A DNA stretch of 62,832 nucleotides, the filler included, from Bonamia ostreae (lineage: Eukaryota), in NCBI GenBank assembly GCA_040357525.1. It is 43 parts of 43 records of this genome, joined end to end, with 100 filler letters (N's around TTAATTAATTAA, not from the genome) between each part and the next. Parts side by side here need not be neighbours in the genome. Positions count along the whole stretch, not along the records: positions 5,906 to 7,280 come from JBDODL010001937.1; positions 7,381 to 8,754 come from JBDODL010001938.1; positions 8,855 to 10,226 come from JBDODL010001939.1; positions 10,327 to 11,697 come from JBDODL010001940.1; positions 11,798 to 13,168 come from JBDODL010001941.1; positions 13,269 to 14,638 come from JBDODL010001942.1; positions 14,739 to 16,108 come from JBDODL010001943.1; positions 16,209 to 17,578 come from JBDODL010001944.1; 35 more parts are not named here. One strand, 5' to 3'. Shown piece after piece: positions 6,036-58,321 of the stretch. The position numbers and the translations under genes were made by a program. The first letter of the stretch is position 1. Every line of letters starts with the position of its first letter. The notes under the pieces are model-generated. The model saw only the letters and a list, made by a program, of their open reading frames with translations. It was not told where the DNA came from and did not search any database.

Positions 6036-7280
6036 ATGAAAAAATTGTATTTTAAAATTGATAGAAAGCAATCTGGTGTCGTTGGTCTCATTCCCGAAAA
6101 CAAAGAAGATATATGGCATCTTTATAATCTTATTTCTATCGGAGATAAAATACAAGCTTTTACTGATAGAAAAGTTGTTAGCACCGCAAAAACTAATCCA
6201 TCGACATTTGTTTTTAGAATTTAATTTCAAAATTGATATTAATGATCTGAAAATCACACTATTTTTCGAATTTTCAAATTTTGATTTTAAAATAAAAAGA
6301 GAGTGCGAATTCGCCTAAAAATACAAATAGAGTCGATTAACGTCGATTTGGACGCGTGTTCGCTAAGACTTTCCGGAAGAAACAAGACTTTAAGCCCTCA
6401 CATCCAATTAGAGCAATATCACACGATCACTTTGCAGTTGAACCAAAAATTCGAAATAGACAAAGAACATTGGGACGTTTTGTCCAAAAATCGTCTTAAA
6501 ATGGCTTTAAACAACAGCGCCAATGCCGAACTTGCTGTTATCTTAATGGACAATGTTAAATTTGTAAAACAATTAAAAAGGGCTCCGCAAATTTATATTT
6601 GATAGCGCCAAATTTGACTTTACACAAAGCAACCGTAAATGTTGCTATTCCGAAAAAGAGAAACTATTCGGCGAAAAAACATTCTGCCGTTTTTAATTTG
6701 ATTTTAAGGCGATCACAAAATTTTACGATAAAATATTGATAGCGATCAAAGCAAATGTAGATTTTGTGGTAGTAAAATGTCTCGTTGTTGCATCTCCGGG
6801 ATTTTATAAAGTTTCAAAAATTCAAATTTTTAAAGGACGATTTTAAAAAATGGCTTAAGGAGAATTTGAAAAAAGTGAGCATTAAAGAAATTGCAGAAAA
6901 TTTTGACAAGTTCGTTTTTTGCCATTCTTCTTCGTCGTATAAGTTTACAAATTGCAAAATTTAGAGATGGACTAGAAAGCTTACTCAACAGCAAAGAAGT
7001 CCAAGATTCGATCAAAAATACAAAATTTTTCGAGGAATCCAAAATATTTGATGACTTTTTAAGGATTTTGGCAAAACATCCCGATAAAGCTGTTTACGGT
7101 TTTAAAAACGTTCGAAAAGCTGTTTCTCGTAAAGCTGTGCGGGATTTGCTTGTTACGGACGATTTTATTAGGGGATCGGATGTAACAATGAGGAAACAAA
7201 TCGCTGCTATTTCCAACAATACACAAAAACAACGTGGGAAAGTTCATGTTTTGTCTAGTCTTAGTTCGCCAGGAGAACGT
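6036..7280 (+). CDS. PELO: Pelota/Dom34 ribosome-rescue factor (3' partial); introns 6210-6299, 6555-6580, 6689-6708, 6811-6835, 6943-6964
   Basis: Removing five GT-AG introns gives a continuous pelota: PENKEDIWHLYNLI..GD...TDRKV...LRLSGRN...QYHT...IPKKR...KCLVVASPGFYKDDF...AVYG...VHVLSS. Confidence 0.96.
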
Positions 7281-7572
7281 NNNNNNNNNNNNNNNNNNNN
7301 NNNNNNNNNNNNNNNNNNNNNNNNTTAATTAATTAANNNNNNNNNNNNNNNNNNNNNNNNNNNNNNNNNNNNNNNNNNNNCTACCATTAGAATTTCATCA
7401 CACCAGCTAGGGTAGTGAATGAAGGTAAAACACGAGTACGCAATTCCCGAGAAGAACATTACAATGAAATTTTACTATACATATTCCTATGTGAAAAGAT
7501 GTACATGTGAATATTTCGGGGGAGAGTGTTTTATTAATGAGACTGAGCTATATTTGTTTTTTTTTTAAAGAA

Positions 7573-7748
7573 GGTAACCACTCTGGACTGACAATATCAG
7601 TTGGAGATAACAGTGGGCGCAAGTGCTACAGCGGTTTGTTCCCTGAAAATACAGGGACTATATTCTGCAACAGAGTATTAAAAACGAAAATATTGAACAT
7701 AACATTTGATTTGGAAATTGAAGTCCAAGAAGTGGAGGTTTATGGAGG
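7573..7748 (+). CDS. Host exon, possible fucolectin/galactose-binding-like domain fragment
   Basis: Exon-like stretch ending EVQEVEVYG followed by a canonical gtaag donor. Confidence 0.4.
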
Positions 7749-8854
7749 TAAGATTAAGAGTATGGAAATGACACGATCGCTTACACGATACGTTCACTCT
7801 GCTCCAAACTCAAATTCAAGCTCCATTTTGGCTAGTATTCTCATTTGATGGTTGTTAATTTGGATTTTTTCTAAGAACAAGGCCATGGACCACCAAAATT
7901 ACCCGATCTTTGAACTTAGTGATATCATCACCAAATACTCTTTGAACGACAAACGGTTGTCGTTTTTCGATATTTCTAAAACCTTGATCCGTGTGATGAT
8001 GNNNNNNNNNNGATTAGCAAACTTGTCCTCGTCTTAAGGTATGCCCCCTTCAAGACGGTAGCATCTATTTTTCGAAATAGGGGTTAGAAAGGAGGGGCGG
8101 AAAAGAAGTTCAGTTTACGACTACCTAACAATTCTTTGCAAGCCAATAAGAGACTGCAACTAAAGCACGACATATAAACGAGGTGTATCTAATTTAGTTC
8201 TTCAGTTCAGTCTCACTTTTACACTGTGTAGTATGACTGCCATCAAAATGGGGGCACCTGGTGAATCAAAGTTTGCACGTAAAATGAAATGCCTTTGTAC
8301 GTAATAATAACAGAAAAAGTATATTGATTAAACTTCAGGGGGGGGGGGGCATATTTGTCAAGATAAACCGCATTAAACCTTTAAAGGATAACATGCCATT
8401 GGTAACGTTGTAGAAGTATTGGACTACTGGTAAAACTGTCTAGTGACATTAACTGGAAATTTTGCAACATTGATCGCCCTTGCCATCAAAGTTTATTGGC
8501 ACAAAATTTTATTTGGATACATACTCGTAATTGTGATAGTATTTTGTCCCTTTACGAAGCTCGATATTTGAAAAATGTAGGAAAAGTGGTAAATGTTCAT
8601 ACACTTAAAGGGTCATGGGTTTTAGATACCGAGAAATTTTCGTGGGTTTCCCTATCCCATGAATTTCAAAAAAAATCATAAAAATAACTGAGAGCTTGTA
8701 TCACCCTTTCAATTGAATAAAAGCTATCTTAAGACATTCGTCCTAATTGGTTCCNNNNNNNNNNNNNNNNNNNNNNNNNNNNNNNNNNNNNNNNNNNNTT
8801 AATTAATTAANNNNNNNNNNNNNNNNNNNNNNNNNNNNNNNNNNNNNNNNNNNN

Positions 8855-10210
8855 TATCTGGAAAAATGTTTTTGCAGATCACTTTAAATTTCAAATAATC
8901 AAAAATTTTCTTTTTTAAATCACTTTTTAACAGAAAATTCATAATATTTCATTTAGACATTTACATTCCGAAAGAAGCTGTTAATCCAGAAATGCGACTG
9001 GAAAACTTTGAAATGGCTAAAAATAAGGAATCGACTTTGATATCGATAAATCCGTTGGCTGCGTTCAGATTGGCTGTCTGCACTGAAGAAAACTTTGTTT
9101 TACCCGAAATAAGTCTCTCTTCGAGAGATTGCTTGAGAGTTTATGACGCAATGACTAAGTTTTTTTTAACGTTATCGCTTTTTTTGCAAAATTTATTTTA
9201 AGACGATCGAAAATTTATTTTAAGCAAAATTTTAAGACGACCGAAAATTTATTTTAAACAAAATCAATTTTAAAGAAAATTTATTTTAAGACGATCGAAA
9301 TTTATTTTAAACACAATTTTAAGACGATCGAAATTTATTTTAAACAAAATTTTAAGACGACCGAAAATTTATTTTAGACAAAATGTATTTTAAGACGAAC
9401 GAAAACTTTTTAGTCGCAAATTAATATTTTTAGCCAAAATTTTGTAAATTTCTCTTTTAAAAAATCACAAAAAGAACATTGAAAGAACTCAAAAAAGAAG
9501 AAAACAACGACAAAACAATCACCGAAATTAAAGCTTTGGATCCCGAAAAGTACTTCAAATCGCCTTGCATCACCAAAAATCAAGTGACGACTTATGGCAA
9601 AGAACTGAAAAAACTCATCTCAACTTGGCATCGCCAAGGAAACTGGAACCTGGTTTCGCATTAAAAACAATTCGAAACTCAAAATAGGTCGATAAAGTTC
9701 TCATATCTTTATCGAAAAATCTTCTCGACAAAATCAAAAAAATGGAGTCGCAAGAACAAAAACACGACTCCGAAAACCCGACAAAACAAACAAAAAGTCC
9801 GAAAAAGAAACAGAAAAAAGATCTGTTGAAAAACTTGAAACTTTCGCCGTTGCCCAAAACGACGTTGAAGAGATACGACGGTCCCTATTCGGATGACTTT
9901 CTGCTGCGCCAGATAGTGCCTTTGCTCGTTGAAATGAGGAACAACTCGGATTTGCCGGCGATCGTTTTTGGGGGCAGCCAGAAAATCTGCGACGCGATGC
10001 TTTTGGAGACTTTGAAGTACTTGGAGACAAACGAAAGTTTCGTGATTTCGAAAAACGATTTGAAAGAGCGAAAACGAGCTCAGAAAGACAAGTTGAAGAA
10101 GATGAAAGCTTGGAAAAGAGAACGAGATCGGATTGAAAAAAAGAAAGAAGAAGAGATGTTGAGAGATGGGACGATTCCCGATGAGATTAATGCTGACGAA
10201 GACGAAGAGG
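8855..10210 (+). CDS. DDX60-like (Ski2-family) RNA helicase, internal fragment; introns 8868-8956, 9159-9474, 9653-9687
   Basis: YLEKYIY...INPLAA...LSSRDCLRVYDAM...LDPEKYF...ITKNQVTTYGKELK...W...LPAIVF...C resembles the DDX60 region between the RecA domains. Confidence 0.7.
9185..9410. repeat. Intronic degenerate tandem repeat (TTTTAAGACGAYCGAAAATTTATTTTAA units)
   Basis: About 6 copies inside the 316-nt intron of the DDX60-like gene. Confidence 0.9.
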
Positions 10211-10637
10211 TTTTGTAACAATTATTNNNNNNNNNNNNNNNNNNNNNNNNNNNNNNNNNNNNNNNNNNNNTTAATTAATTAANNNNNNNNNNNNNNNNNN
10301 NNNNNNNNNNNNNNNNNNNNNNNNNNTAAAAGTTCTTTAGAATGGCTGAGTAATGTTGTATATTGAAGTCAGTTGTTTTGTTAAAATGTTAATGAAGATA
10401 CTATTCCATTCCAATAAATTTGTTCTCGTTGTATATTTCTTGTCACCCGTACTCACTTGTGAGATAGTGGATTGAGCAAACGTAAATGCTGATGGGCGCC
10501 TTTTGGTTTCACAAACTGTGTCTTACGTTTTCTGATATTAAGAATTTGAATTATTTTCAGATTATCTCCCTATGTATTGCTATATGATTTGCTGCATTGG
10601 TCTTTTAACCAGATGACAATACTGCAGTATGCCTTAC

Positions 10638-10925
10638 TTTCAGTGACATCCACACATATTTTCTCACTTGCACCTTCTCCTGCCACACTAAGAGCGACAC
10701 ATTGGTAGGAACATTTCGCTTCCTTTAGGAATGTACTCAAGTTGATCGTTTGCGTATAGTGAAATGGTCCTTTCTTTTCCAGCGACGCCTTTTTCTCTCC
10801 TAAGCATACCACTTCTCCATTTTCCAGCCAGTGTACTTCTCTTATGTCCCATTTGGAAAAAATGTCTGCCTTGATTTTGTATGTTCCAGGAGAGTGTTCA
10901 GGTGTTATGGTTACTTTGGGAGGAT
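10638..10925 (-). CDS. Host immunoglobulin-like domain exon (phase 1-1, 288 nt)
   Basis: DPPKVTI...VHW...YQCVALSVAGEGAS..I.V.V flanked by a tttag acceptor and gtaag donor. Confidence 0.75.
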
Positions 10926-11797
10926 CTAAATGGATATACAATATTAGATAATATAAATGTATAGTAATACAAAATCAAACTGGCAAACACAGACAGACTC
11001 TCGGACAAACCAAAGTTGGTATATCATTTATAGGAGTAGAGAGCAGTCCCTTTTGACCGCTGTACATCTTGAATGAGTCATGCAGAGTATTTGGTAGTCA
11101 GAATCAGTATTCGAGGAACGGCCTCACAATATACCCGATATCTGAAGGCCGATTACTTCATTTTACACCAGATGTGATCAATTTATTTCGCAGTAAATAA
11201 TACCTCCATAATCTACTGAGATGAACACAATTCGCAGACATTTTTTGTTATTTTTGTTATTGTCTTTTCAAATTATAAAATCAGCTTCACAAGATCATGC
11301 TAAAAGGAACAAAAACTATATAATCTTCTTTTACCGGTAAAATTGATTTCTTTATAAAACGACGTTATTTTCAAGTACCTTAACTTCCAATATTTGACAC
11401 TATATATAGATATCGAATATGTAAAATAAAATTTCGCTTTTTATACGATATTTAGAGGTGATAATGTTTGAATTGAGCGCCTTTCATAATTGAAACATTT
11501 GTACATCGGCCACTCAAGAGTAAGAAGGTAAAAAGAATTAATCAAATAATTTTGGTTGCGTTGGTCCATTTGAAAATATATCAAAGAAAAATACATCCAA
11601 TAGACTATACGATGCACTTTTCAATTAAAGGACATAGTATACCTTTCATTCGAGAACTAAATGATGCCCATTTGCACTACAAATCATTATCTTCCATNNN
11701 NNNNNNNNNNNNNNNNNNNNNNNNNNNNNNNNNNNNNNNNNTTAATTAATTAANNNNNNNNNNNNNNNNNNNNNNNNNNNNNNNNNNNNNNNNNNNN

Positions 11798-11960
11798 ATT
11801 TTTTGCAATTTTGTAAATTTATGTTTTCGATTGCCAAAATTGATTTTTTGCAATTTTATAAATTTCTGTTTTAGATTTCCAAAATCGATTTTTTGCAATT
11901 TTATAAATTTCTGTTTTCGATTGACAAAATCGATTTTTTGCGATTTTATAAATTTTATAA
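11798..11960. repeat. 45-nt tandem repeat (AAAATCGATTTTTTGCAATTTTATAAATTTCTGTTTT...), probably intronic
   Basis: AAAAT register at 11836, 11881 and 11926; lies directly upstream of a RhoGAP exon. Confidence 0.85.
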
Positions 11961-12540
11961 ATTACTAAAAAAGATTCCTGAAAAAGGAAAAGCAGTCTTA
12001 AAACACATGGCCGTTTTTCTAACAAATTTGGCACAAAACGAAAAAATCACCAAAATGGACTTGTCAAATCTCGCCATCGTCTTTACACCTACTCTCACTC
12101 GAATTGAGACGACAAAGGATATTTCCAAAATGATGTTAATCAACGACCATCTCCAAACGTTTTCTCCCTCTTTACAAAAAAATCTATTTTTTCAAAATTT
12201 GAAAAAATCTATTTTTCATCTTAACAAAATTTGGAAATTAAAAACATTGTCCAAAACCATTTTTTAATATTCAAAAAAAAATAGTTTTGTTGTATATTTA
12301 TTGCTATATTACGAGAACCAAAAATCTGAATTAGCAGTCCCTCCTCCGATCCCCAAAAAAGGAATGAGAAGACTAATATCGGTGTTAAAAAGCGAAGACG
12401 AAAGCGCACAGGAAGACATGACAATAGAAGATTTTATTGTTAGTGGGAAAATGGATGAAAGTCTGAGAAAGATGGAGGTTAGTGCAGATGAAAATGACGA
12501 GTTGTGTCATTTGGAAGAAGACAACACAGAATTATCATAA
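11960..12540 (+). CDS. RhoGAP domain protein, C-terminal part; intron 12159-12284
   Basis: IPEKGKAVLKHMAVFLTNLAQNEKITKMDLSNLAIVFTPTL is the RhoGAP KM..SNLAIVF.PTL signature. Confidence 0.85.
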
Positions 12541-13029
12541 ATTTTTGTCTTTTTTTCTAATCTTTAAATTTTTGTAATGATATTTTTAATAAATTTTTGT
12601 ACTTTCAATAGAACATTTTTTTATAAAATAGATTTTTAAAATTTTTGTAAAATTTTAACGAACAAAATATTGTGATATCTTTTTGTAATAAAAAGATTTT
12701 ATGCAATTTAATTGCTTTGATTTATAAAACCGACAAAATTAAAAAAAATAGCAAATTTAAAATTTTAGTTTTAATGGAAAGAATTAAAATTTATTCAAAA
12801 TATTGTTCTTCTTTTACATTGATCAATCTGAAAAAATCTCTTTCTTCGATAATGTTTTTGGCCAAACTTTCAAATTTTTTTTCGAGTCTTTTCTCAATTT
12901 TTTGTTTCTTTTTCGGTGTCGAAAATATCACTTTTTTTATAGTTCTTTTTATTATTTTTTGGGATTCCCAAAAATTTATCGCTTCTTCAACCATTTTCTT
13001 TTTATTTTTTGCACAAATTATTTTTTTTC

Positions 13030-13168
13030 GCCAAAAAATAAAATTTTGTTTTTGATTAAAATCGTTTTATCGCAAAAAATAAAATTTTGTTTTTGATTAA
13101 AATCGTTTTATCGCAAAAAATAAAATTTTGTTTTTGATTAAAATCGTTTTATCGCAAAAAATAAAATT
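13030..13168. repeat. 41-nt near-perfect tandem repeat at contig end
   Basis: CGCAAAAAATAAAATTTTGTTTTTGATTAAAATCGTTTTAT starting at 13071, 13112 and 13153, with a variant copy near 13030. Confidence 0.92.
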
Positions 13169-13323
13169 NNNNNNNNNNNNNNNNNNNNNNNNNNNNNNNN
13201 NNNNNNNNNNNNTTAATTAATTAANNNNNNNNNNNNNNNNNNNNNNNNNNNNNNNNNNNNNNNNNNNNTTTAACCATTTCTAGATAAGATTTATGATAAA
13301 GCTTAAATATAATTCCGCAAAGA

Positions 13324-14638
13324 TTATAATGAATTTAAAAGTTTCCATCTTCGCCATATTTGGTTATCCGTTCTTCCTTCCATTTCTTTAGCGATCACAG
13401 ACCATTTTCCGGTCCCAAATCTTTTAACGAGTCGATTCAGTTTGTTATCTTCGAAAACGGTCCACCGACTTTTGTTTATCCTGTTGTCCAAGACATTGCA
13501 ATAACGCTCTCTGCACCTTTTTATTCGAAGGAAAAAACTTCATATCGGTTCTTTTCGGCACATGTTTCACGACATCTTTCCAATTGCCGTCCCCGTAAAT
13601 CCGTTTCGCCAATATTATTCTTATGTCTTCTTCCAAAGCGAAATTGCCTTTGTTGATGTTTGGATTAGTCGTTTTCTTCCATCTGTTCATGCACTGAAAT
13701 TCATTTTTCGATTCAATCAATTTTGCGACTTTAATAATTTTCAAAACTTTTGCACCAATTATTGCAACCAAAATGACAGACAAGTCTTTTTAACGCTTCG
13801 TTTTCCTGAGCAGTCCATTTATTTTCACTTCTTTTCTCTGTTTTGGAGATTCTGAGAAACCGTTTGAGGCAATCTATTGCCGTTCTTCCGTTGTTCTTTA
13901 ATATTTTTTTAATTTTGGAGAACCATTTTTTCCGCGACATTTTTAAAAATTTTGCAGTTTTTTGTTATTTCGATCAATCTGAGATCGTCTTTTTTGGTCC
14001 ATTTGGATTTGTTTATTAACGGACTGTCTATGTTGCGCCATTGTAATTCGCATTCCATTCCTGTGCGGTTTTCCAGCTATCAATATTTTAAAAACGTAAA
14101 TTTTTGCTAATCTCTCCCAATCAACGATATTTGTATCGGCAACGAATTCGTCTTCGTTTATTTGCTTAATCAACTCGATTGTGTTCTTAAATTCCGACCA
14201 AGATTTTTCAGTTTTGCCTGTTTTCTCGAGTCTGAAATGTTGTAGATGAAAATATTTTAAACTTTTGTTTTGCCTTTGTGATGAAATGTTGTCGTTTTAA
14301 GTTCAAAATCCCGTTAAAAATCTGCTGCCTTTCAATTTCAGAAACTTGTTGTTAGAATAAAAACATGGTGTAGCTGCTTGAACATGGCCAATTTTGTTTT
14401 TGAATTTTCCAACCAGTTTCTCTTCGTTGCTGCCGGGAGGTTCCTTAAAATATGAAGTAGCAAACGTTATTAAAATCATCGACGAAGAATGGCAGTTTGA
14501 AAGCGAATTTTTTTCTGTAATAGTCCTTTCGAATCGATATCGAAGATTTTTGGTTTTTCGTTTTATCCTAATCAATTAAAATATCAACGTTTTTCTGTTC
14601 GGATTTTCTGATAAGCTGGTCAATATAATTTATCCTTT
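13324..14638 (-). CDS. SNAPC4: SNAPC4/SNAP190-like multi-Myb protein (5' partial); introns 14077-14095, 13896-13923, 13729-13747, 13517-13538
   Basis: Spliced: DWERLAK...[20 protein letters not shown]...RTAIDCL...QCMNRW...PNINKG...RTDMKCRERY...[25 protein letters not shown], i.e. 4.5 Myb repeats, with an upstream [11 protein letters not shown]. Confidence 0.75.
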
Positions 14639-16713
14639 NNNNNNNNNNNNNNNNNNNNNNNNNNNNNNNNNNNNNNNNNNNNTTAATTAATTAANNNNNN
14701 NNNNNNNNNNNNNNNNNNNNNNNNNNNNNNNNNNNNNNAAGCATATGGTAGGTAAAGAGTTAAGCACATGTACGTTATGCAGCAAAACAGTCCTATCTAA
14801 AATTTCTTCAAATCAAATAGGTAAGATGCGTACAATATGCTCTTGTTAAAATACATTAGTTTTTTTCCTTATATCTCATGTCGTTTTCTTTTAAGCTTTA
14901 GTTAAATAGTTTCTTAGGAAAAAGCAAATAACGTCATGAGGTCAATGTATGTGAACGTCTTAGGAAGAAAGGAAACTACTTCAAGTGAAGGTAACGGAAG
15001 ATTGGTTATTACTTTGTTTTATAATCTTCCAAAAGTTATTGCTCATATTGAGACATCACCAGTAGTGGATAAAGTTCCACAAATTTAGTCGCATGTTTAG
15101 TGTTTACAGTCGTAGCTGTGATAGCAAGGTTTGATAACAATTTTCTTTTCAGTGGTGGACTTAAGGACCACAACCTTTCAGTTCCTGATTTACCTTTCAG
15201 AACACATGAGGTCCTCCAAATATATTCGTTTAAAAAAAACAAGACACTGTTTTCTCCATTGTATTTACATAACGTCTAATGACATTCTGTTTGATTTATA
15301 TTTTCAAATGCTACTACTGGTGGCAAAGTTGAGACCATAGTGTAGTCATTAATTTTAGACCACCAAAATATATATTTCTATTCCCAGTACTTAGTGGAAA
15401 AATAGAACAGCTATAGTAGTCAGACAGGGAAACTATTTTTAATTCTTTTCTTTCAAATAGAAAAATTCAATCAAAATGTTAAAGAAAAATTAAACTTAAT
15501 TATAAAAAATATAAAACTAAACATCATTTCATCTGTTGACCCATGTCTCAATGCCTGAGGTTTAATATGGATTTAGTCTGATCATCTTTACGTCAATGTT
15601 TAATTTACATTAATTCTAATACAGTGCAGATTCAGACCACTTTATCTGAAATTTTATCACCACCTTTTGAATATATCATGTACCAGGGTCTTATATGCAT
15701 ATGCAGTTTCGATTTGATGTGGCGTTTTTAGGGGAGAGTCTAGGATTTTAAGTGGGCTCAGGCTTGAGTAAGTGTATTGATAAATATATATACATAAGAA
15801 TTTGAGGATAAATTATGTTTATTTTGATTGATAAAAGTCTGACGACTAGGGAGGCACTCTGGTTTATTTATTTAGCAATTTTTTATTTGTCATAAAAGTG
15901 AAACCCGTTGTCTGTGTCATCACACCTAACATTGTGAATTCTCTTATATAAAGAAACTTTTAAAGAAAAATTTAGGTCAAAATACATACAGTTATCATTA
16001 TGAAACATAATAGATAAAAGACACAAAGTATCATTAATTTGTTGACTTTCAAAAAGGCTTACTCGTTGAAACATTCGATTGGGCTCGATATTCCCACAAG
16101 GTATTTCTNNNNNNNNNNNNNNNNNNNNNNNNNNNNNNNNNNNNNNNNNNNNTTAATTAATTAANNNNNNNNNNNNNNNNNNNNNNNNNNNNNNNNNNNN
16201 NNNNNNNNTTAATATAATTTGATATTATTTTATTATGGTAGTTTTTGTTATTGTAGTTTTTAGGATCAATTATTATTTATTGTCAAGATCAAAATCATAT
16301 TATTTTTCGTTTCACTTTTTCGTCAATTATCTTTAAATCGACATAGAAAGTCAATTTGTTTGTTTTTCGATTTCCAATTGCACTTTGAACTTGTCACCGC
16401 TTATAAGACTACTTCATTTCCTTTTCCGTTTCATTTGGGATTTTCAATTCTCTTCCTTCTTCTGTTCTTCTTAAAATGTGGTGGTTCAGACTTGATTATG
16501 AACAAAATGATCGTTGTTTTATAATTAAAATGAATTGTTGTTAATTTCAAAAGTACAACTTTATAATTAAATGTAACAAAAATTATGAAATTTCAAATTT
16601 AACGAAAATATAAGAATTTAGTACAAAGCACGCAAAACTACTGAAAACCATTAAACACAAAAACAATTTGTTTCTTTTATTAGCAATTCACAATACATTT
16701 TGTTAAGCAAAGC

Positions 16714-17412
16714 ATGTCCGATTTAAGCTTAAAACAAGTTTCAACACAAAATTTCAAAGTCAATAGATCTAATGAGACAAATTCGACTTTCGTTAAAGGA
16801 CACAAGCGAATTTGAAGAGATATCTGAGCGCTACTTGACGGCGCAAAAGATGTCTTATATCAACAGATATAAGCACTACGAAGTGCTAGAAAAAGCAATA
16901 AAAAGATTGCAAGACGAAAACAATCAATTGAAAAACAATCTCAATTCAAAGAAAATCAAAAAACCGTCAAATCAAAAAATCGATTTGCGCAAAGAAAAAA
17001 ACAATTTGATTGAAAATATCAAAAATCTAAAAACACAAGTAAAAATTTACAAAATATCGCAAATTAGATTGAAAACCAAAAATTAACGTTATCAGAATAT
17101 GAGCAAAAAACTGCCGAAATCGATAGCGAAACCAAAAAATTTAAAAATTACATTAACAAAAATGTGCCCACTTCAATGTTTTTAATATTAAAATTTTGTT
17201 GCAAAAACCAAAATTTACAAACTGATTTTTTTTGTTAAAAATATAGAAACAAACTGAATCTATACGACAACATTGCAAACATAAAATTAGTTGAAATGAA
17301 TAATGACAAACATATTCATATTATAGAGAAAAATGGTTCAACCAACTCAAAAATTTTATTCGATGAAAGTGGATTTGAAATTACGCAAAAACTCTGGAAC
17401 GAGATTGAATAA
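16714..17412 (+). CDS. SPC24: Spc24-like Ndc80 kinetochore subunit; introns 16738-16759, 17039-17067, 17178-17246
   Basis: Coiled coil followed by VPTSINKLNLYDNIANI...SGFEITQKLWNEIE*, like the Spc24 C-terminal RWD-like domain. Confidence 0.65.
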
Positions 17413-19667: not shown

Positions 19668-20252
19668 TCAAAATTGACACATGTTCCTTCCAAGCAAATG
19701 ATTGATTCCCCAATGTACCGGAACCGAAATTTTGTTCTTCAACGAAAACTGTTTCGACAAATAAACGGAATTCCTTTTTCGCAAATTTATTTAAAAAACC
19801 AGAAAAGCCATCCTGAAATTCCCGAAAAACTGCCATATTTTGTGTCAACAAGTGCGTCCTTTCCACCAATATAGGCCATTGTTCCTTTGTGAACATATTT
19901 GAACGGCTCAAAATCTTTTCTATTCTTCATTTTGTTCATCTCTTTGCATAACCAATAAGCTCTAAATTTTATGTTTGTTAAAAAATCAACTGTTGTTGAG
20001 CGACTTGAGCGGTCGGCGGAAGCGGAGAATTCGGATTGACTAATTTAAATAAATGACGAGTCAGTTAAAAAAAACAGGCGCAATCGCCGAGAGCGAAAAT
20101 GTTGGTGTAAGATTTTCCGTCTTTGCTCATAACGTCTAAATTTTAAAGGATTAACTGTTTTTGTCGTTGATCATAAGACTTTTATTTCGCTCGTTTTTCT
20201 TAAAATCGAGTTTTTCGATAAAAGGAATCATTTTATTCCCAGTGCTCCAAAC
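19668..20252 (-). CDS. Type II (alternative) NADH:quinone oxidoreductase, C-terminal part; introns 20136-20155, 20040-20075, 19962-19990, 19774-19799
   Basis: Not recovered by the ORF track. Spliced: VWSTGN..PF...NIFALGDCA...LPPTAQVAQQQ...PFKYVHKGTMAYIGG...GWLFWNSVYLSKQFSLKNK...W...LGRN. Confidence 0.92.
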
Positions 20253-20993
20253 CTAATTTTATAATTTTCGCCATTACGAAAAACTTTTACCGCAAAATTT
20301 TTCGTGTTAAATTATTTGCGTCTAAAAACTTACAACAAACTTTGTACAACATTTGAAAACACAATTTTTACTTAACGCCATTTTTCCAAAACACAATTTT
20401 TATCAAAACTGCAAAAAGACAATAATATCGGAACTCACTAAATCGTTACAAAAAGATAATCCGAAGAATAGAAAAGCTGTTAAAGATGGTGATAATGTTT
20501 AACAACAAAATANNNNNNNNNNNNNNNNNNNNNNNNNNNNNNNNNNNNNNNNNNNNTTAATTAATTAANNNNNNNNNNNNNNNNNNNNNNNNNNNNNNNN
20601 NNNNNNNNNNNNAATTCCAGTTTCGATATCTGTTCTTGAAAAGTTTTAAAATTTTTAGTTAATTATTTTTCCAAAAAAGCGATTTGCTGATAATCGATTC
20701 CGACAAAAAAGAAGAAAAGTGCGCAAAAACATTATTAAATTTTGTCTTTAAAAATGGAAAAAAATTTAAGTTAAGTGGATTTTTTGTCGGAGGACAATCA
20801 ATACAAAAATCGATTTTAGACGAAGCAAAATTGTTTGCACTTAAAACGGCTCAAAATCATAAATAAATTCATCAATTTTTAATGTCTTCAACTTTTTATT
20901 TTCCATCAAATTAATTTTTGGCTAATTACAAATAACAGAAATTTTGCATATAATTAAAATTGACACGTAAACAAAAGTTTAGACATTGACAAA

Positions 20994-21970
20994 ATGGACT
21001 CCAACGCTAAACCTTTTTTGTTTTATGGCTACGATTTGTCAAAATGGAAAAAATCGTCCATTTTGTTGTTTCTGGCAATCGCTCACATAACTTGCGCTAT
21101 AATGTTCGGTCTTCTCCAAGAAAGAGTTTTTATTCTTTTGAATCGACATTTTTAATAAAAGCTTTTAAAAATTATATCGAATTAGTTTAAAACAGTTGAT
21201 AAAGCGTTCAAAACATTTAATCCAAAATGACGCTATTATTTACTCATTTTTTTACTTATATTTTTTAAACATTTAATCCGAAATAACAATATTTTACACA
21301 CCATTTTAAAGCTTTAAAATTATTTATATGAAATCCGTTTAAACTATTCCACGAAAGTTTCAAAAATTGTACAAACGCTTTCGTTATTTATATTGCCAAT
21401 TTATCAATATTGTAATTTGACGTATCAACATATTTATCAATATTGCTAAATTTAAATTTAGCAAAACTTAAAAGGTGTTTAGAATTCCAGGCTTCAAATT
21501 CGGGGGCTACATGACTATTGTCACAAGCGCTACTTATGTTGTTTGTGGAGCTTTAGAAATGTGGTTATCCGGACAATTTAAATTTAGCGGGGGATTGCTA
21601 AATTATGGGATTTTAGCATTGACCACATTTTCGGGAATGTACTTCACTAATTGGTCACTGGAATTCATTTCGTTTCCGGCGCGGATTATTTTCAAGTCGA
21701 GCAAAGTTTTGTTTTTGACAAAATCAAAATTGCAAAATTTTAACAAAAAAGCTAATTCCAGTTATGCTCGTTTCTTCGATTTTGGGGAAAAAGTTGACAA
21801 CAAAAGAATTTTTAAATAATTGTGCGCTTGTCTTCGGACTTGTTTTATTTGTTCTCGGCGATTCGAAATCTTATTCAAAAGAGTCTTCGCTTTTCGGGAT
21901 TTTTTTAATTTCGATTGGCATTTTCTCGGATGCGGTAACTTGTAATGTCGAAGAACATATTTTTCTAAAA
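20994..21970 (+). CDS. UAA-family nucleotide-sugar/PAPS transporter (SLC35B-like), partial; introns 21126-21474, 21706-21751
   Basis: FGLLQE..F...GF...YMT...TNWSLEFISFPARIIFKSSKLIPVM...SDAV..NVEE. Confidence 0.85.
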
Positions 21971-22477: not shown

Positions 22478-23385
22478 TTAAGTACTCATTTCTCTTAAAG
22501 CCCGCCGAAATCTCAATTCGACCGCATTCACATAATTTCTGTAAATCCTCATTCTCTGAGCCAGCGGCATCTGAGACTGTTCGGAAACGGGCGGTCTGAA
22601 CCTCATGCGACTCGCCGCTTCCCCGAAGCGCGACATGAACAGTCTCCGGATGCGATTGCATTGCAATCTGGTCAAAGCGTTAAAACGGTTAACGCGGATC
22701 TGCTCGCGCTGCTGAGCACTAACGACCAAGTTCCTTAAGTTCGGCGGGCAGAAAGTCGAAACGGAAATGACGGATTGCGAGTAACTTTGGTCTATGCGCA
22801 AAGCACTGTTGGCGTTTCTCCGTCGTCTCGTGCGATTGCCGTTTCTTCTGACTTCACGCGCGGCCCTTCTTTCGCGCTTTCTGGTGCAGATTCGGCAGTA
22901 CCAGTCGCCGTCAGGGATTTCTACCAGCGCGGGCGTCATGCAGTAAGTGTGGTAGCCTCGCTGCGTCAAAAGTAAATTTATTTGTAAATGCAAACATCGC
23001 AATCGTCGCACAGAAGTAATTTGTCTTCGTCGTGGCCCTCTTTGAATTTGATGAAAAGTACCTTTGCAGATACGACACAAAGTCTCGATGTCAAAATTTT
23101 GGGTGTTAATGGGGCGAAACGGGTTTTTGGTGTTTTTTACTTTGACCGATCTTTTGTTCGGTTGTGTGATCTCGCCGAATGTCTGTTTGCAGAGAGGACA
23201 AGTGTTGTTGATCTATCCAAGTTGTTATGGCTTAAAACAGTGCTCCATAATTTGATGCAGTTGTAGTGGTAATTGTGTCTGCAGCCGTTTAATGAAGCTT
23301 TGTTTTTTTCGATGTCGTCTAAGCAAATTGAACATACTGTTTTTTCTACATTTTTTAGATTTACTTCGTTTTGAGTTGAGCTCAT
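22478..23385 (-). CDS. RING plus PHD finger protein (PHRF1-like); introns 23213-23238, 23040-23061, 22961-22995; 3' end uncertain
   Basis: CSICL...CRHNYHYNCIKLWSTINNTCPLCK and [27 protein letters not shown]...IPDGDWYCRIC after splicing. Confidence 0.88.
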
Positions 23386-45542: not shown

Positions 45543-45616
45543 ATACTTTATAGAATTTACAAACCAAATTTTTTCAATTAACCTTAATTTGTTGCAAACA
45601 AGTTTATCAAACATAC

Positions 45617-46805: not shown

Positions 46806-46939
46806 CTAGAAATAAAAAGTCATCACTNNNNNNNNNNNNNNNNNNNNNNNNNNNNNNNNNNNNNNNNNNNNTTAATTAATTAANNNNNNNNNNNNNNNNN
46901 NNNNNNNNNNNNNNNNNNNNNNNNNNNCGACAAAACCAT

Positions 46940-48200
46940 TTTTGACATTAGAAACAACTCCATTTAAAGCCCTAACGCGCTGGACAAGCGGTTGGTGTTC
47001 ACGCGCGAAAACGAAAGTCTCGCCCATTTTGTTCAAAGAGAGCTCCTTTTCCGTCAGCGTCGGCAAAATCGGCGCAATCGTCCGGAGCAATCTCATCTCG
47101 TCCACGAAGGGCAGAAGCGCGACCGCTTGCCACAAAAAGCGTTTTCCGTTTAAGTCGAAATCGACACTCGTCGGATAAAAGTCGGCCACATCGCTGCTCG
47201 GATCCGTCATCAGACCCGCCAGTTTCCTCGGCAGACAGTGGCTCGACCCCGGCGGCATCACGCCCAACAGTTGCGCGAACGGGTCCAACGGCTTTCCGAT
47301 CGAAAAGCTGTTGTCCCAGTTTTTGACGCGCGCGAGGTCGGAAGCGAAGGGCGCGTAATGGAATGGATAGAACCAGCCCCAACTCGGGCACCCTTTGAAG
47401 TAGTAGTTCAGAACCCATTGCAATCCCCTCAAATAAGACGACAGCAGTTCGGCGAGCTGCGGGGGCGGGTTGGTCAAACTGAACTTTTTGTCGAATCTGC
47501 AACCGAACTTGGTGGAATAATATCGTTCTTTCCAGCCGTTTCGGCCCAGTTCGACATTGTCTTGTTTTGCCGAGTTTTTGTCGCTTTGAAGATTTTTTAG
47601 ATCTTCTTCCACATCTTGTAAAGTCGGGTCTTTTTTTATTGCCAAATTTTTGGCTTGTTTTTCATTGTTTTCGAACAAATTTTTATATTTTTCGGTTGTC
47701 AAATTTTTCTTTTTATTTTTGGTGGTCAAATTTTTCTTGTTATTTTTTTCGGTTGTCAAATTTTTCTTTTTATTTTCGGTTGTCAAATTTTTCTTGTTAT
47801 TTTTGGTGGTCAAATTTTTCTTATTTTTTGAGGCTAATTTTTTTAATTTTAAAAAATTTTACAATTCAAAATGGAATTGATTTTTTCTGTCAATTTGTCT
47901 TTGATCATTTGAATCAAATTTTTTTTGACAATTTCTTTTTTCGACGATTTTACCGATTTTTCGTTGTCAGTATTATTAAGAATTTTGTCCAAATTGATTT
48001 CGGTTATTCCACCGCTTTCGATTTCGCCGAATTTGACTGATTTTGATTTTTTGTTTTTCTGTTTGGATTTAATTGATTCGATTTCTTCCAGAACTTGGCG
48101 ACGAGTCTGTGTTTGTAACATTTGGTTCGCTTTTTTCTGGTTTGTTTCTCTGGGCGGTTTGCCGGAAGTGAACATTTTTTCGGTTTGTTTTTTATGTTTT
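46940..48200 (-). CDS. XRN2: 5'-3' exoribonuclease XRN2/Rat1, internal fragment; repeat-filled intron 47630-47862
   Basis: GWKERYY..KF...YLRGLQWVLNYY..GCPSWGWFYPFHYAPFASD...P..QLLGVMP...DFYP...DLNGKRFLWQAVALLPFVDE. Confidence 0.92.
47675..47830. repeat. Intronic tandem repeat (~27-30-nt AAAAATTTGACMACCRAAAA units)
   Basis: About 5 copies; produces the spurious KNLTT peptide repeat in the ORF track. Confidence 0.88.
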
Positions 48201-51296: not shown

Positions 51297-52500
51297 GAAG
51301 AATTAGATTTCCACACAGATTTAAATTCGTTGCTGGAACCAAAATTGGAAATGATGTGTGATCTCAAGCAATACATCGATACGTCCACTGATTTTGTCGC
51401 AGAACAAATTCCTCTTATTTTCAACGGAACCGATTGGCAACCTTCATTGATCAAAGAAGGCATGATTTTTCTTGTCGATGTTTTGATGAAAGCGAGTATC
51501 GTCATCGGAAACAATACGTCACTTTCGAATGATTTCACTCGTCTCAAAAGGTTTCGTTGTCAAAATTTAACTTTTGAATCTAAAAACTTCCGTTATCAAA
51601 ATTTTCTTTTTATCGCAAACATTTGATTTTTCAAATTTAGAGAAAATCAAATTTTCGTTGACAAATTTGGAGGTAAAAATTTGGTCGCGCAAATTAATTC
51701 GCTGCAAGGATTTTTTAGTTCCGCTAATTACATAATGGAACATTTGCGCGACAAAATTCAGTCCAAACAAACTCACGTTTCAGCCATTACAAAAATGGCA
51801 ATTTGCGCTCTCGATCTTATCGATTCGAACAAGTTCTTTCATCCAGAAGAGCAAACCGCGCTTATTAGATTCGCCATCGTTCAAAATTTTTGTTCGGATT
51901 AAAATTACAATAAACAAAAATCGATAAATTGACGAACTTTAAAGCTTTTGCCAAATTTATCCCAAAACTTAAATAAAGCATTCCGTTTATTTGACGAACA
52001 GCGCCAGTTACAACGTGTTCAAAGTGAAGAAGAAGTTTGTCGGGAGAATAAAGGGCGTTGTCCAGAAAAACAGTTTTGTGCCGATTTTGAACGACATTAA
52101 TTTGTCTGCCAAAGAGCTCATTTGGAGCAACGCACAATCTTTTGGCGAGAAAAATTATGATTGGATCGACAATTCCCCGGGTTTAATATCAGATTAAAAT
52201 TGCGCCATTTTAAACTGCTAAAAACTGTAAATTGATATTAAACGAAAAGAGCTGTTTTCGTTGGTTCCTGGAATCGAAGTAATAAAGAGGGCATTGCGAA
52301 ATTACTTTATGTCTTTATTGCCTTATATGGCTTTGAAAAGCGGTTCGATCGAAAAAATGAACAGCCAAAATCAAAACGAATATTTTGATTTTGCGAAAGA
52401 GGTGATCGAACTGATTTCGAGAGGATTCGTTATGCTCTCGGCTATTCAAAACCGAATTAAAAAACAGTTTTGTTACAAACTTGAAAATCGGATCAGTGAA
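51297..52500 (+). CDS. CYFIP: CYFIP/Sra-1/PIR121 WAVE-complex subunit, internal fragment; introns 51551-51640, 51879-51978, 52181-52249
   Basis: LLEPKL...SLSNDFTRLKR...L..F....N.I...L...FFHPEEQ..L...VPILNDI...W...CYKL is colinear with CYFIP1/2. Confidence 0.8.
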
Positions 52501-55427: not shown

Positions 55428-55545
55428 CAACAAGAAGCCCGTGGGTCACAATGTTCACCTGAATCACTATGGTTATTCAACAGCAGATTTTTTTCACCTA
55501 TATATTCCTAAGAAAAAACAAAGTTGCCCCCTCCAAAAGCGAAGG
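55428..55545. mobile_element. Helentron/HINE-like end (AACAAGARGCCC.TGGG.CACA..G.TCACCTGA), host
   Basis: Motif recognised from oyster repeats. Confidence 0.5.
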
Positions 55546-55663
55546 GTCATTATTGGAAAAAAANNNNNNNNNNNNNNNNNNNNNNNNNNNNNNNNNNNNN
55601 NNNNNNNTTAATTAATTAANNNNNNNNNNNNNNNNNNNNNNNNNNNNNNNNNNNNNNNNNNNN

Positions 55664-57018
55664 TTATAGACATGAGCAGAATCGAATCCATTTACTATAT
55701 CATAATCAAGTAAAGCTGGTTTCTTAGCTATTGAATAACTAGTAGCCCATGCTGGTACTAACCCAGATATTTTAATCTGCACATAGGCATCTAAGTTTGT
55801 AGCATCATTCCTAAGAGGATTAATATCTACGCTACCAATAGGAATTGCATCTGAGCTTCTATTAAAATCATCGTAATATATGATTGCATATGATTGTTTT
55901 ACTCCATGTTTCAATGAATGGCCTGTTGCATCCTCTAATGGTATATACTGAGGTAGTATCTTAACACTCAGCAAAGGTTCACTATCATATCCATCTGTAT
56001 AACCACCAAAGACTAAAGAGTTTTGTATGATAGTTAAACTTCTTGCTTTATGAGGTACGTTATCGTAAAGCTTATTTATATCTTTCTGTGGTATTAACTT
56101 ATAAGTAGTGTCATTACAAAATTCTACTGTAGTTACTACACTAGGGGTATCTTTAATTATAGAATAAGCTTCCCCTGTATTGACATCAAAAGCTATTACT
56201 TCTACATATTTGACATCTGGACTAACATTAGGAATAGATGCATCAATATTTACACATGCTATATCATTTTGGATAAAGTTGTTATCATACTTTGCTTCAC
56301 CTATTACAGCCGCTTTCATAGTATAATCATATATCCCAGTAACTGAGCTAGTAGTAAGTAAATTTGAGAAACTATTTCCATCGTTTACAGACTTTTCAGT
56401 CTTACCATAATTATCACTACTATCTATATATCCTATATACAATGAGTTACCATCCAAACTCATATCCATAGATAATGAACTATCCCAAGTTATAGTTTCT
56501 TTATTATAATCCTGAGAATTAGGGAATGTTATACCTCCATCAGTGGATGTCTTGAATCCTATCTTAGTAGCTGTTGCATAAGCAACAGTAACCTTAGCTC
56601 CAGTAAGATCAGTGGCTATCTGTATTGACTTAAATGATAGTGTCCCTACGTTAAAATTATTTGATACAGTCCATGTAGAACCATAATCATAACTTCTTGC
56701 GATCTTAAAATCTTTGTTTGTATTTTGATTACCTACAACGACAAATACATTCCTTCCAGAAGAACTACAGCACAAAGCAATAATTTCTCCTTGACTATAA
56801 ATATTTGTCCCACTAGGATCAGAATTTTCATCTACGTGTAAAGTCCTTATATATGTTCCTGAAGCACCATTCTTTGTTGAAACACCTAAATCATCATTGC
56901 TTCCTAGATAAACATATTTCCCATTATCAGACATTGCCATAGGTCTTGTCCCTATGACATTAGAATTTGCACCTATCTCATAAACTTTACTTCCATGTTG
57001 GTTATAAACTTCTAAATC
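55664..57018 (-). CDS. Phage virion/tail protein fragment (Bacteroidota/crAss-like stabilisation or muzzle type) with Asp-box repeats
   Basis: Intronless and open across the whole contig; YDNVPHKARSL..IQNSLVFGGYTDGYD...SLKHG...YAIIYYDDFNRSS...VPAWATSYSI; SxDxGxTW/F repeats. Confidence 0.7.
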
Positions 57019-57161
57019 NNNNNNNNNNNNNNNNNNNNNNNNNNNNNNNNNNNNNNNNNNNNTTAATTAATTAANNNNNNNNNNNNNNNNNNNNNNNNNN
57101 NNNNNNNNNNNNNNNNNNACGTCAAAATTTCTCAAGTTCTGCGCTATTTATATTCTAACAG

Positions 57162-58321
57162 ATTAAAATCAATAGAAAAGTTTTCCAAAAAATGGTCAAT
57201 TGGATCAAAAACCAAAAAATTCAATTCTTTCGAAATCACAAAAAACAATATTTTTATCGGAAACGACGACGGCTCAATCGGAGTCTATGATCAAAATTCT
57301 ACCAAAAATGAGCTGAAACCGACTTTAAAAAATTATCTGGACCATCATTCCGACCGAATTTCAAAATTATCTTCATTCTCGCCAAAAACTTTTGTTTCCG
57401 CTTCTCACGACAACTCGATCGCGATTTGGGACAAATCCGACAAATTTGATTTGCGAAAATCGCTGAAACCGCATTCCGACAAAATCACCGGTCTGTCGAT
57501 TCAGCCAATGCGCCGCCATTTCGCAACATGCTCTTACGACAAAACTTGGGCTTTCATAGATTTAGAATACGCCAAAAAGTTGAGAAACTCCGAAAAACAG
57601 GAATCCGAGCTTATCTGTATAAGTTTCCACCCGGACGGTTTGATATTCGGCGCTGGGAGCAACGGAGGGGCGCTGAAAATGTGGGACATCAAATCCCAAA
57701 GCGATGTCGCCACGTTCGAACACGGAAAAACGAGTGTGACGGCGATAGCGTTTTCCGAAAACGGGTACTATCTCGCCTCTGGCGGGAGCGACGGAGTCGT
57801 AAGGCTTTGGGATCTGAGGAAATCAGACACAATCGCCAAACTTCCGAAGTTGAGTTCCGCTGTGGACGATGTCGTTTTTGACCCGTTTGGCGGATATTTG
57901 GCTGTTTGCGGCGATTTTGGTTTTTAGCAAATTTCAACGATCTGAAACAACTCAAAATGTCAGTTTCAAAGCTTAAAGCTTATTTAAACTGTTAGTAAAA
58001 CCAAGATAATAAGTTTGTAAGTTTAAAGCTTAAGCGATTGTTACCAAAGACCGAAAAATGTCTTTAAATAAAATTGAAAAATTTGTTTCACAGTTTTAAC
58101 AGATTTGCTTTAATTGTAAAATAAAATGTCGCTCTTTAAAAATTGTTTCTGGGCTTTAACGATCTTTGAAAACCAAAATAGGATTGTCTTTGTACACTTC
58201 GAAGAAATGGGAATCCGTGAAAAACTTGAACAAGAAAGGCGCAATAGCAATCAACTTTGACGAAGACAGATTGACTGCAATCCAAAAGAACGGTTCAGGC
58301 CTCATATCCTACGCTGTGTAA
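57162..58321 (+). CDS. PRPF19: Pre-mRNA splicing factor PRP19, WD40 region; intron 57920-58181
   Basis: HSDKITGLSIQP...S.DKTWAF.D...FHPDGLIFGAG...KMWDIKSQ...IAFSENGYYLASG..DGVVRLWDLRK...FD..G.YLAV. Confidence 0.93.

Follow-up and report, generated by a model that had tools for sequence, protein, structure and literature searches.

The stretch of DNA analyzed here (the window; 62,832 bases of the Bonamia ostreae assembly GCA_040357525.1) is not one locus, but consists of 43 contigs of 1353–1377 bp, which are ordered longest first and joined by N44-TTAATTAATTAA-N44 linkers. AT-rich protist contigs are intermixed in the window with animal (oyster-type) contigs, and its GC content is near 0.33. 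Approximately half of the contigs carry AT-rich genes, which encode eukaryotic housekeeping proteins rich in lysine and asparagine and are split by very short AT-rich inserts. The protist contigs have long reading frames and use the standard genetic code and the standard stop codons, on which grounds a ciliate source was rejected. Their association with oysters, GC content, genetic code and dense tiny introns point to an oyster parasite, more likely than not a haplosporidian of the Bonamia kind (Rhizaria, Ascetosporea). The genes recognized in them encode Pelota, XRN2, Prp19, ORC2, an FtsH-like AAA protease, a type-II NADH dehydrogenase (NDH2), a Snf7-family protein, a UAA-type sugar transporter, ribosomal protein L19 and a Myb-repeat protein. 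Prp19 is the sole splicing-factor gene recognized in the window. The subject of this report is the 5' splice site (donor) of the inserts. In all likelihood the inserts are true spliceosomal introns of the GT-AG type, belonging to an AT-rich protist that inhabits oysters, and 40 of the 43 introns in the curated set begin with GTT. The introns depart from the canonical donor, GTRAGT: a purine is present at position +3 in 3/43 and G at position +5 in 2/43.

The reading frame of the Pelota/Dom34 gene (contig 5, window 5906–7280) is interrupted five times. One contig of the public run X4 (1038 nucleotides (nt), depth 285) matches positions 6002–7222 of the window. This contig jumps 6210–6299 (90 nt, GT..AG), and also lacks 26 nt at 6555, 20 nt at 6689, 25 nt at 6811 and 22 nt at 6943. 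The DNA runs X1 and X2 are continuous through all five introns. Thus, the five inserts, each of which starts with GT and ends with AG, are absent from the X4 contig and present in the DNA, which looks like the pattern of a spliced transcript. One third of the words sampled from window 5906–15900 are found in run X4, and the organism given for this run differs from those of the runs that contain the DNA. The public runs that contain DNA of window 5906–15900 include ones labelled 'oyster metagenome'. The RNA run X12 gives no match to contig 5, which says nothing either way. The five introns of this gene, all defined by comparison of the X4 transcript with the X1 and X2 DNA, are as follows.

6210–6299, plus strand: Pelota intron, 90 nt, GTTTTTA..AAAAG
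6555–6580, plus strand: Pelota intron, 26 nt, GTTAAAT..AAAAG
6689–6708, plus strand: Pelota intron, 20 nt, GTTTTTA..TTAAG
6811–6835, plus strand: Pelota intron, 25 nt, GTTTCAA..TAAAG
6943–6964, plus strand: Pelota intron, 22 nt, GTTTACA..TTTAG

The RNA-defined donors are GTTTTT, GTTAAA, GTTTTT, GTTTCA and GTTTAC, so that GTT is present in 5/5, GTTT in 4/5 and G at +5 in 0/5. The acceptors are, in the same order, AAG, AAG, AAG, AAG and TAG. Within the first intron, positions 6259–6293 are the sole match of a second X1 contig and a second X2 contig (1201 and 1250 nt), which are unlike the window sequence beyond this segment; the first Pelota intron therefore has a short repeat in common with a further locus. 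Single-base differences from the window are observed at 6138 (A>G, in one of two short X1 contigs), 6217 (G>A, intronic, in X1 and X2), 6768 (G>C, in X4) and 6844 (T>C, in X1). These differences look like strain polymorphism of the parasite.

Introns of the other protist genes were placed with an exon chainer based on dynamic programming, which scores a codon model against an AT-rich null model, requires GT..AG and open frames, and charges a fixed penalty per intron. The chainer does not see donor positions +3 to +6. It allows introns of 15 nt or longer, and long introns were re-run with a maximum of 450 nt. Three earlier scorings (length only; codon usage against an out-of-frame background; the latter with a composition bonus) over- or under-predicted introns and were discarded. 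On contig 5 the chainer places four of the five RNA-defined introns exactly, and gives the fifth with the correct acceptor and a donor 9 nt too far in. The donor called in this case is GTAAAA, whereas the true donor is GTTAAA; the known error of the chainer therefore turns GTT into GTA and works against the GTT claim. The raw output for the sense strand of the 17 protist contigs comprises 56 introns, which start with GTT (46), GTA (6), GTG (3) and GTC (1). Thirteen of these calls (7 GTT, 2 GTA, 3 GTG and 1 GTC) were removed by judgement, on the grounds that they create mini-exons, lie past a stop codon or belong to doubtful 5' parts that look non-coding, and one donor was corrected from the RNA. 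The curated set consists of 43 introns in 17 genes, which start with GTT (40, of which 28 are GTTT) or GTA (3). Possible introns in contigs 2, 9 and 19 are too uncertain and were left out of the count.

When all frame-compatible GT..AG alternatives are enumerated, most of them delete 15–60 nt of good coding sequence or reuse the same donor. The junctions were also examined by scanning each exon separately with Pfam; at nine junctions beyond those of Pelota, the coordinates of the profile carry on from one exon to the next. The best-supported introns are thus 14 in number (five from RNA and nine from Pfam), and these start with GTT in 14/14, start with GTTT in 12/14 and have G at +5 in 0/14. 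The exons of contigs 7, 22 and 36 give no Pfam match, and the evidence for their seven introns consists of frame and codon statistics. A search of the PDB with three small NDH2 exons gives weak, motif-level matches for two of them and none for the third, which confirms the identity of the gene and does not fix the junctions.

The base composition of the 43 donors is highly biased at +3 (T 40, A 3), less so at +4 (T 28, A 6, C 5, G 4), and varied at +5 (A 17, T 19, C 5, G 2) and +6 (A 17, T 17, C 6, G 3). At the last exon base (−1), A is found in 16, T in 11, C in 8 and G in 8. The commonest donor hexamer is GTTTTT (12/43), all three GTA exceptions read GTAAAA, and both donors with G at +5 read GTTTGC. 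A U12-type donor ([AG]TATCCTT) is found in 0/43 introns. The background of T after GT is high in these contigs, being 361/792 (46%) for the other GTs on the same strands and 25/48 (52%) for GTs inside introns, the interiors of which contain 38% T and 8% G. Sham introns called by the same chainer on the antisense strands of these contigs start with GTT in 36/76 cases (47%), and those called on the host-like contigs in 27/73 (37%). The excess of T at +3 is significant against the same-strand background (binomial p = 5e-11 vs 0.456) and against the antisense calls (Fisher p = 3e-7), and that of T at +4 is also significant (p = 3e-4 vs 0.38). G at +5 is neither enriched nor depleted, being found twice against 3.6 expected from the interior G content. 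Because its frequency equals the intronic background, the rarity of G at +5 reflects a loss of selection for it and not avoidance. These results make it very probable that the lineage has its own donor consensus, G-U-U-(U), with information at +1 to +3, weaker information at +4 and none at exon positions −3 to −1, +5 and +6.

An earlier sequence-only reading of this DNA had reported GTT at 42 of 46 introns in 19 genes, with GTA at the other four. The curated set agrees with this (40/43 GTT and 3 GTA in 17 genes), as do the five RNA-defined donors, and all five coordinates that it gave as examples (6689, 9159, 14095, 32865 and 57920) are donors in the present list. The same reading had counted G at +5 in 3 of its 46 introns, and this rarity is confirmed, but the special meaning given to it is not, because a G content of 8% in the introns accounts for it. 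Its use of host exons as an internal control, with donors of the gtaag, gtatg and gtacg types, is plausible: six host exon ends examined by eye (contigs 6, 13, 26, 34, 37 and 41) are followed by GTAAGA, GTAGTG, GTATGT, GTAAGA, GTATGT and GTACGA, as read from the sequence only.

The acceptor (3' splice site) departs from the usual signal as much as the donor does. The last three bases of the introns are AAG (23), TAG (17), CAG (2) or GAG (1); these triplets follow A or T, and there is no pyrimidine tract, whereas the host-type acceptors, as read by eye, carry pyrimidine tracts. Intron length ranges from 19 to 349 nt, with 22/43 of 29 nt or shorter, 27/43 of 19–38 nt and none shorter than 19 nt. 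The interiors contain 79% A+T, and the density is approximately 2.5 introns per 1.36-kb gene fragment. Words containing TAA are present in nearly all introns, as composition alone predicts. The 38 introns outside Pelota are listed below; 'frame and codon' denotes restoration of the frame together with the codon-model chainer, with the frame-compatible alternatives compared.

783–820, plus strand: 38 nt, GTTGAAC..TAAAG, WD40 gene (contig 1); frame and codon, close alternatives all share the donor
953–1045, plus strand: 93 nt, GTTTATA..ATTAG, WD40 gene (contig 1); frame and codon, Pfam WD40_WDHD1_1st 85–127 then 131–168
9159–9474, plus strand: 316 nt, GTTTTTT..AAAAG (contig 7); chainer with maximum intron 450, no Pfam support
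9653–9687, plus strand: 35 nt, GTTTCGC..AATAG (contig 7); frame and codon, also in the maximum-450 run
14568–14588, minus strand: 21 nt, GTTGATA..ATTAG, Myb-repeat gene (contig 10); frame and codon, lower confidence, flanking exons short and unconserved
14444–14465, minus strand: 22 nt, GTTTGCT..TTAAG, G at +5, Myb-repeat gene (contig 10); frame and codon, lower confidence
14345–14364, minus strand: 20 nt, GTTTTTA..ACAAG, Myb-repeat gene (contig 10); frame and codon, lower confidence
14232–14262, minus strand: 31 nt, GTTTAAA..TTCAG, Myb-repeat gene (contig 10); frame and codon, sole feasible GT..AG pair, lower confidence
14077–14095, minus strand: 19 nt, GTTTTTA..GATAG, Myb gene (contig 10); frame and codon, Myb_DNA-bind_6 position 28 starts the downstream exon
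13896–13923, minus strand: 28 nt, GTTCTCC..TAAAG, Myb gene (contig 10); frame and codon, position in the Myb repeat equals that of the other three
13729–13747, minus strand: 19 nt, GTTTTGA..TAAAG, Myb gene (contig 10); Myb_DNA-bind_6 1–20 (exon residues 27–47 of 49), then 25–59 from residue 2 of the next exon
13517–13538, minus strand: 22 nt, GTTTTTT..AAAAG, Myb gene (contig 10); Myb_DNA-binding 1–35 stops in the final residues of the upstream exon
17039–17067, plus strand: 29 nt, GTAAAAA..ATTAG, GTA class, coiled-coil gene (contig 12); frame and codon, no other donor
17178–17246, plus strand: 69 nt, GTTTTTA..TATAG, coiled-coil gene (contig 12); frame and codon
20136–20155, minus strand: 20 nt, GTTAATC..TTTAG, NDH2 gene (contig 14); frame and codon
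20040–20075, minus strand: 36 nt, GTTTTTT..ATTAG, NDH2 gene (contig 14); frame and codon, the IFALGDCA motif (PDB NDH2 chains) ends the upstream exon
19962–19990, minus strand: 29 nt, GTTGATT..TTTAG, NDH2 gene (contig 14); frame and codon
19774–19799, minus strand: 26 nt, GTTTTTT..AAAAG, NDH2 gene (contig 14); Pfam NDH2_C 1–24, then 33–62 from downstream residue 1
20833–20977, plus strand: 145 nt, GTTTGCA..AAAAG, G at +5, UAA-type sugar transporter gene (contig 15); frame and codon, also in the maximum-450 run
21126–21474, plus strand: 349 nt, GTTTTTA..AAAAG, sugar transporter gene (contig 15); chainer with maximum intron 450
21706–21751, plus strand: 46 nt, GTTTTGT..AAAAG, sugar transporter gene (contig 15); Pfam UAA 30–104 then 105–182
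23213–23238, minus strand: 26 nt, GTTTTAA..GATAG, RING-finger gene (contig 16); zf-RING_2 2–34 of 44 stops at the exon end, CPLC of the finger opens the next exon
29834–29881, minus strand: 48 nt, GTAAAAT..AATAG, GTA class, FtsH-like AAA gene (contig 21); frame and codon
29704–29724, minus strand: 21 nt, GTTCAAA..TTTAG, AAA gene (contig 21); Pfam AAA 1–14 then 16–63, one split codon between
29528–29557, minus strand: 30 nt, GTTTTTT..TTTAG, AAA gene (contig 21); Pfam AAA 16–63 then 64–97
31326–31378, plus strand: 53 nt, GTTCAAA..TTAAG (contig 22); frame and codon, alternative donor 15 nt upstream also GTT, no Pfam support
31488–31576, plus strand: 89 nt, GTTTCAA..TCCAG (contig 22); frame and codon
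32865–32893, plus strand: 29 nt, GTTTAAA..TAAAG, Snf7-family gene (contig 23); frame and codon, Snf7 1–129 of 171 stops at the exon end
35789–35897, plus strand: 109 nt, GTTTTAC..AAAAG, ORC2 gene (contig 25); RecA-like_ORC2 to approximately 180, resumes at 182
36144–36170, plus strand: 27 nt, GTTCCAT..AAAAG, ORC2 gene (contig 25); frame and codon, ORC2 winged-helix domain in the next exon
39280–39322, minus strand: 43 nt, GTTGCTG..TTTAG, PLAC8-family gene (contig 27); frame and codon, Pfam exon scan
39073–39092, minus strand: 20 nt, GTTTAAA..CAAAG (contig 27); frame and codon, sole feasible pair
40312–40333, minus strand: 22 nt, GTTTTCA..AAAAG, ribosomal protein L19 gene (contig 28); frame and codon, Pfam exon scan
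47834–47862, minus strand: 29 nt, GTAAAAT..ATTAG, GTA class, XRN2 gene (contig 33); frame and codon, sole feasible pair, low-complexity part
51592–51642, plus strand: 51 nt, GTTATCA..TAGAG (contig 36); frame and codon, no Pfam support
51879–51978, plus strand: 100 nt, GTTCAAA..TAAAG (contig 36); frame and codon
52181–52249, plus strand: 69 nt, GTTTAAT..AAAAG (contig 36); frame and codon
57920–58181, plus strand: 262 nt, GTTTTTA..AATAG, Prp19 gene (contig 40); chainer with maximum intron 450, Prp19 WD40 18–239 of 281 upstream, no Pfam match downstream

Most of the 316-nt intron at 9159–9474 is filled by a tandem array (9188–9393) of 33–34-nt units (ATTTTAAGACGATCGAAATTTATTTTAAACAAA), which has an 87-nt super-period and 93–94% matches. 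The four introns of the Myb gene on the minus strand between 13517 and 14095 occupy the same relative position in consecutive Myb repeats, immediately ahead of the (G)RT..QC..RW part, which suggests that they were duplicated together with the repeats or inserted in parallel.

The tiny introns of Paramecium, of the heterotrich ciliates and of the chlorarachniophyte nucleomorph generally start with GTA. Their lengths are 15–16 nt in Paramecium and the heterotrich ciliates and 18–21 nt in the nucleomorph, according to the work cited in PMC10245619; the introns of the window resemble them in a minimum near 20 nt and in AT-richness, but differ from them in a length tail that extends to 349 nt. The closest likeness in donor sequence is to Entamoeba, in which 88–90% of the introns start with GUUUGU and the U1 gene reads AACAAAC, the two having co-evolved (Roy and Bowser, 10.1101/2022.06.08.495308). 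The sequence-only reading had cited the Entamoeba donor as GTTTGT with G retained at +5, which accords with this source. U at +3 (40/43 here) and at +4 (28/43 here), the AT-richness of the introns and the fit of GUUU to a normal U6 ACAGA are common to both. Entamoeba, however, keeps G at +5 and U at +6 and prefers U at +7, whereas the introns of the window have these bases in 2/43, 17/43 and 13/43, respectively. In addition, Entamoeba is intron-poor with a strict signal, whereas introns are dense here and their signal is loose. The donors of the GUAUGU lineages (Saccharomycotina, Giardia and Trichomonas) share with the present ones a pyrimidine at +4 that mismatches canonical U1, but they keep A at +3, G at +5 and U at +6, whereas +3 is U here and +5 and +6 are free (10.1101/2022.06.08.495308).

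The mikrocytids (Mikrocytos and Paramikrocytos), which like Bonamia are Ascetosporea and parasites of oysters or crabs, also have very short AT-rich introns. As described in PMC10245619, their introns are all 16 or 17 nt long, number 224 in the genome and are highly conserved in sequence, and a reduced or hard-to-find set of small nuclear RNAs (snRNAs) is on record for them. The introns of the window, by contrast, are 19–349 nt long with none at 16–17 nt, dense, and conserved only at GTT; on account of the difference in length, Mikrocytos was rejected as the source of the contigs. The published Bonamia ostreae genome has 33.3% GC, an N50 of 1417 bp and approximately two introns per mRNA (PMC11069148, Table 1), and the text of that paper labels the introns 'canonical' and, in the part cited here, is silent on donor sequence, intron length and snRNAs. 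In a 2026 paper on rhizarian genomes, ascetosporean introns are described, in the part cited here, only as reduced (PMC13746701). A search of the main text of openly available papers gives no statement on haplosporidian donor sequences or intron lengths.

To relate the donors to the snRNAs that read them, pairing was computed for all 43. The canonical 5' end of U1 (ACUUAC) forms a contiguous helix of 2.42 positions on average, and pairs with GU only in 33/43 donors. In the absence of G at +5, of a preference at +6 and of G at exon position −1, canonical U1 could therefore pair with little beyond G+1 and U+2. A U1 of the ACAAAC type forms a mean contiguous helix of 3.91 positions. The ACAGA of U6 pairs at a mean of 2.63 of its five positions, and at +2, +3 (as a G-U wobble) and +4 in 26/43 donors. 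U at +3 and +4 is able to pair with an ordinary U6 ACAGA (10.1101/2022.06.08.495308). Because U6 ACAGA fits these two positions, the U6 half of the rewiring that the sequence-only reading had proposed may need no change. As a whole, the interpretation given in that reading is reasonable and partly supported, but goes too far on G at +5 and on U6.

The best explanation as a whole, which is probable, is that the inserts are genuine introns with GUU(U) donors, which are read by short RNA pairing combined with intron definition. Intron definition acting over a very short span would locate the splice sites, and the GUU(U) start would be read through RNA pairing of only three or four bases. In the preferred version of this explanation, the 5' end of U1 would have A opposite +3 and +4, as in Entamoeba, so that the helix would lengthen to 3.9 positions, against 2.4. 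The donor would next pass to an unaltered U6 ACAGA, with the pairs U+2-A, U+3-G (wobble) and U+4-A. Such a partial compensation of U1 is a tentative proposal, drawn by analogy with Entamoeba and somewhat short of an even chance. With no constraint at +5, at +6 or on the exon side, any donor helix has at most approximately four pairs, and proteins and intron length must contribute in every version.

Several points weigh against the explanation as a whole. No snRNA and no U1 protein of the organism is seen, so that everything said here of U1 and U6 is what we infer; a search of the window with Rfam at E <= 0.1 and at E <= 10 gives no snRNA, but only four chance-level hits. In the mikrocytids, Infernal found U2, U4 and U6 only, as reported in PMC10245619, which leaves a U1-poor route open. 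The RNA evidence comes from one gene, and X4 is tagged 'RNA?' as a guess. For 29 of the 43 introns the evidence is frame restoration and the codon model, and four of these, in the 5' part of contig 10, are weak. Thirteen calls of the chainer were discarded by judgement. The program imposes GT..AG on the 38 introns outside Pelota, for which these two dinucleotides are thus a premise and not a result, and it is blind to stop-free introns with a length divisible by three; non-canonical classes would therefore escape it. T is present at +4 in just 65% of the donors. Finally, the sample consists of 17 gene fragments from 62 kb and is not a genome-wide logo.

It is hardly credible that the donor bias is an artefact of choice, in which T-rich sequence and placement by eye or by a program favor a GT that precedes a T run. 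The high background of GTT (46% of GTs, and 52% inside introns) is what such an artefact would need, and the codon model, which penalizes T-rich codons, could draw exon ends to such places. However, GTT is present at 5/5 RNA-defined donors and 9/9 Pfam-fixed junctions, the same chainer yields only 47% GTT on the antisense strands and 37% on the host-like contigs, and its one known error converted a true GTT into GTA. A real consensus that is served by an ordinary U1 is a more serious alternative, although still rather unlikely. In this case ACUUAC would pair with GU only, proteins and short length would recognize the donor, and U6 ACAGA would then read U+2 to U+4; candidate proteins are U1-C, LUC7 and TIA-1/Nam8-like binders of a U-rich start. 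The U-rich start of the introns (GTTTTT in 12/43) would suit such binders, and a strong U1 helix would be expected to constrain +5 and +6, which are free here. A standard U1 is also kept by all 69 Saccharomycotina species with candidates, by Thecamonas and by Micromonas, and, according to earlier work cited in the same paper, by Giardia and Trichomonas despite their atypical donors (10.1101/2022.06.08.495308). The yeasts, Giardia and Trichomonas, however, keep G at +5 and U at +6, so that the pairing of GU only in 33/43 donors is weaker than theirs, and the presence of T in 93% of the donors at +3 requires some reader.

A spliceosome in which U1 is lost or sidelined, with the donor chosen directly by U6, U5 and Prp8 in a tiny intron, is very unlikely. 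The mikrocytid relatives are reported to have only U2, U4 and U6 snRNAs and 17–19 spliceosomal proteins (PMC10245619), splicing genes were already being lost at an early stage in part of the Ascetosporea (PMC11069148), and GUU(U) matches U6 ACAGA at three positions. The latter paper, however, assigns these losses to the paramyxid-mikrocytid branch rather than to the haplosporidian one, and it describes the Bonamia introns as canonical. Moreover, introns as long as 349 nt have the same donors, and a negative result with a standard model says little about the absence of a divergent U1 (10.1101/2022.06.08.495308). A broader form of this idea, in which an intron-dense eukaryote has donors that carry only GUU, form little or no pair with U1 and are chosen by U6 ACAGA and length, as a state ancestral to the mikrocytid reduction, is likewise unlikely. 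Short pairing with a partly compensated U1, together with intron definition, is the version that we prefer.

The finding is one of atypical and possibly co-evolved 5' splice sites, for which Entamoeba offers a related precedent. It is very unusual for a donor to have a pyrimidine at +3, and Entamoeba, in which U1 has changed too, is the sole case described in the cited part of 10.1101/2022.06.08.495308. A second, unrelated lineage (Rhizaria) with U at +3 is a natural experiment, in which many introns have given up G at +5, U at +6 and G on the exon side. It bears on the minimal RNA pairing that a spliceosome needs, on the co-evolution of snRNAs and splice sites, and on the onset of spliceosome reduction in the mikrocytids. 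If U1 in fact contributes little, it would be a natural example of U1-light splicing. Gene finders that are trained on GTRAGT or on minimum introns of more than 20 nt will mis-annotate this economically important oyster parasite.

Close relatives, which might show whether the GTT donors are shared, were sought with the XRN2 fragment. The best identity among 1101 hits in a protein collection is 53%, and the 49 loci found in metagenome contigs are ordinary, distant eukaryotic XRN2 genes with identities of at most 66% over short stretches, so that neither search gives a usable relative. Aragorn finds no tRNA in the window. Approximately 18 of the 43 contigs are host-like, as sorted by eye (contigs 6, 8, 11, 13, 18, 20, 24, 26, 29, 30, 31, 32, 34, 35, 37, 38, 41 and 42; for example, window 7381–8754, 33792–35152 and 58573–59926). 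They carry tyrosine-phosphatase, EGF-like, Ig-like and Macro-domain exons, with GTAAGA or GTATGT donors and acceptors preceded by pyrimidine tracts. The assembly behind the window seems to retain much host sequence. The minus strand of window 2954–4329 contains a decayed retrotransposon of the non-LTR (long terminal repeat) type, with endonuclease-like pieces in several frames and with frameshifts. On the minus strand of window 55664–57018, a single open frame of 451 amino acids spans the whole contig without a stop codon, an intron or a Pfam match; its product is rich in S, T, N, D and G, resembles a beta-propeller or sialidase-like repeat, and is unlike the products of the protist and host genes alike.

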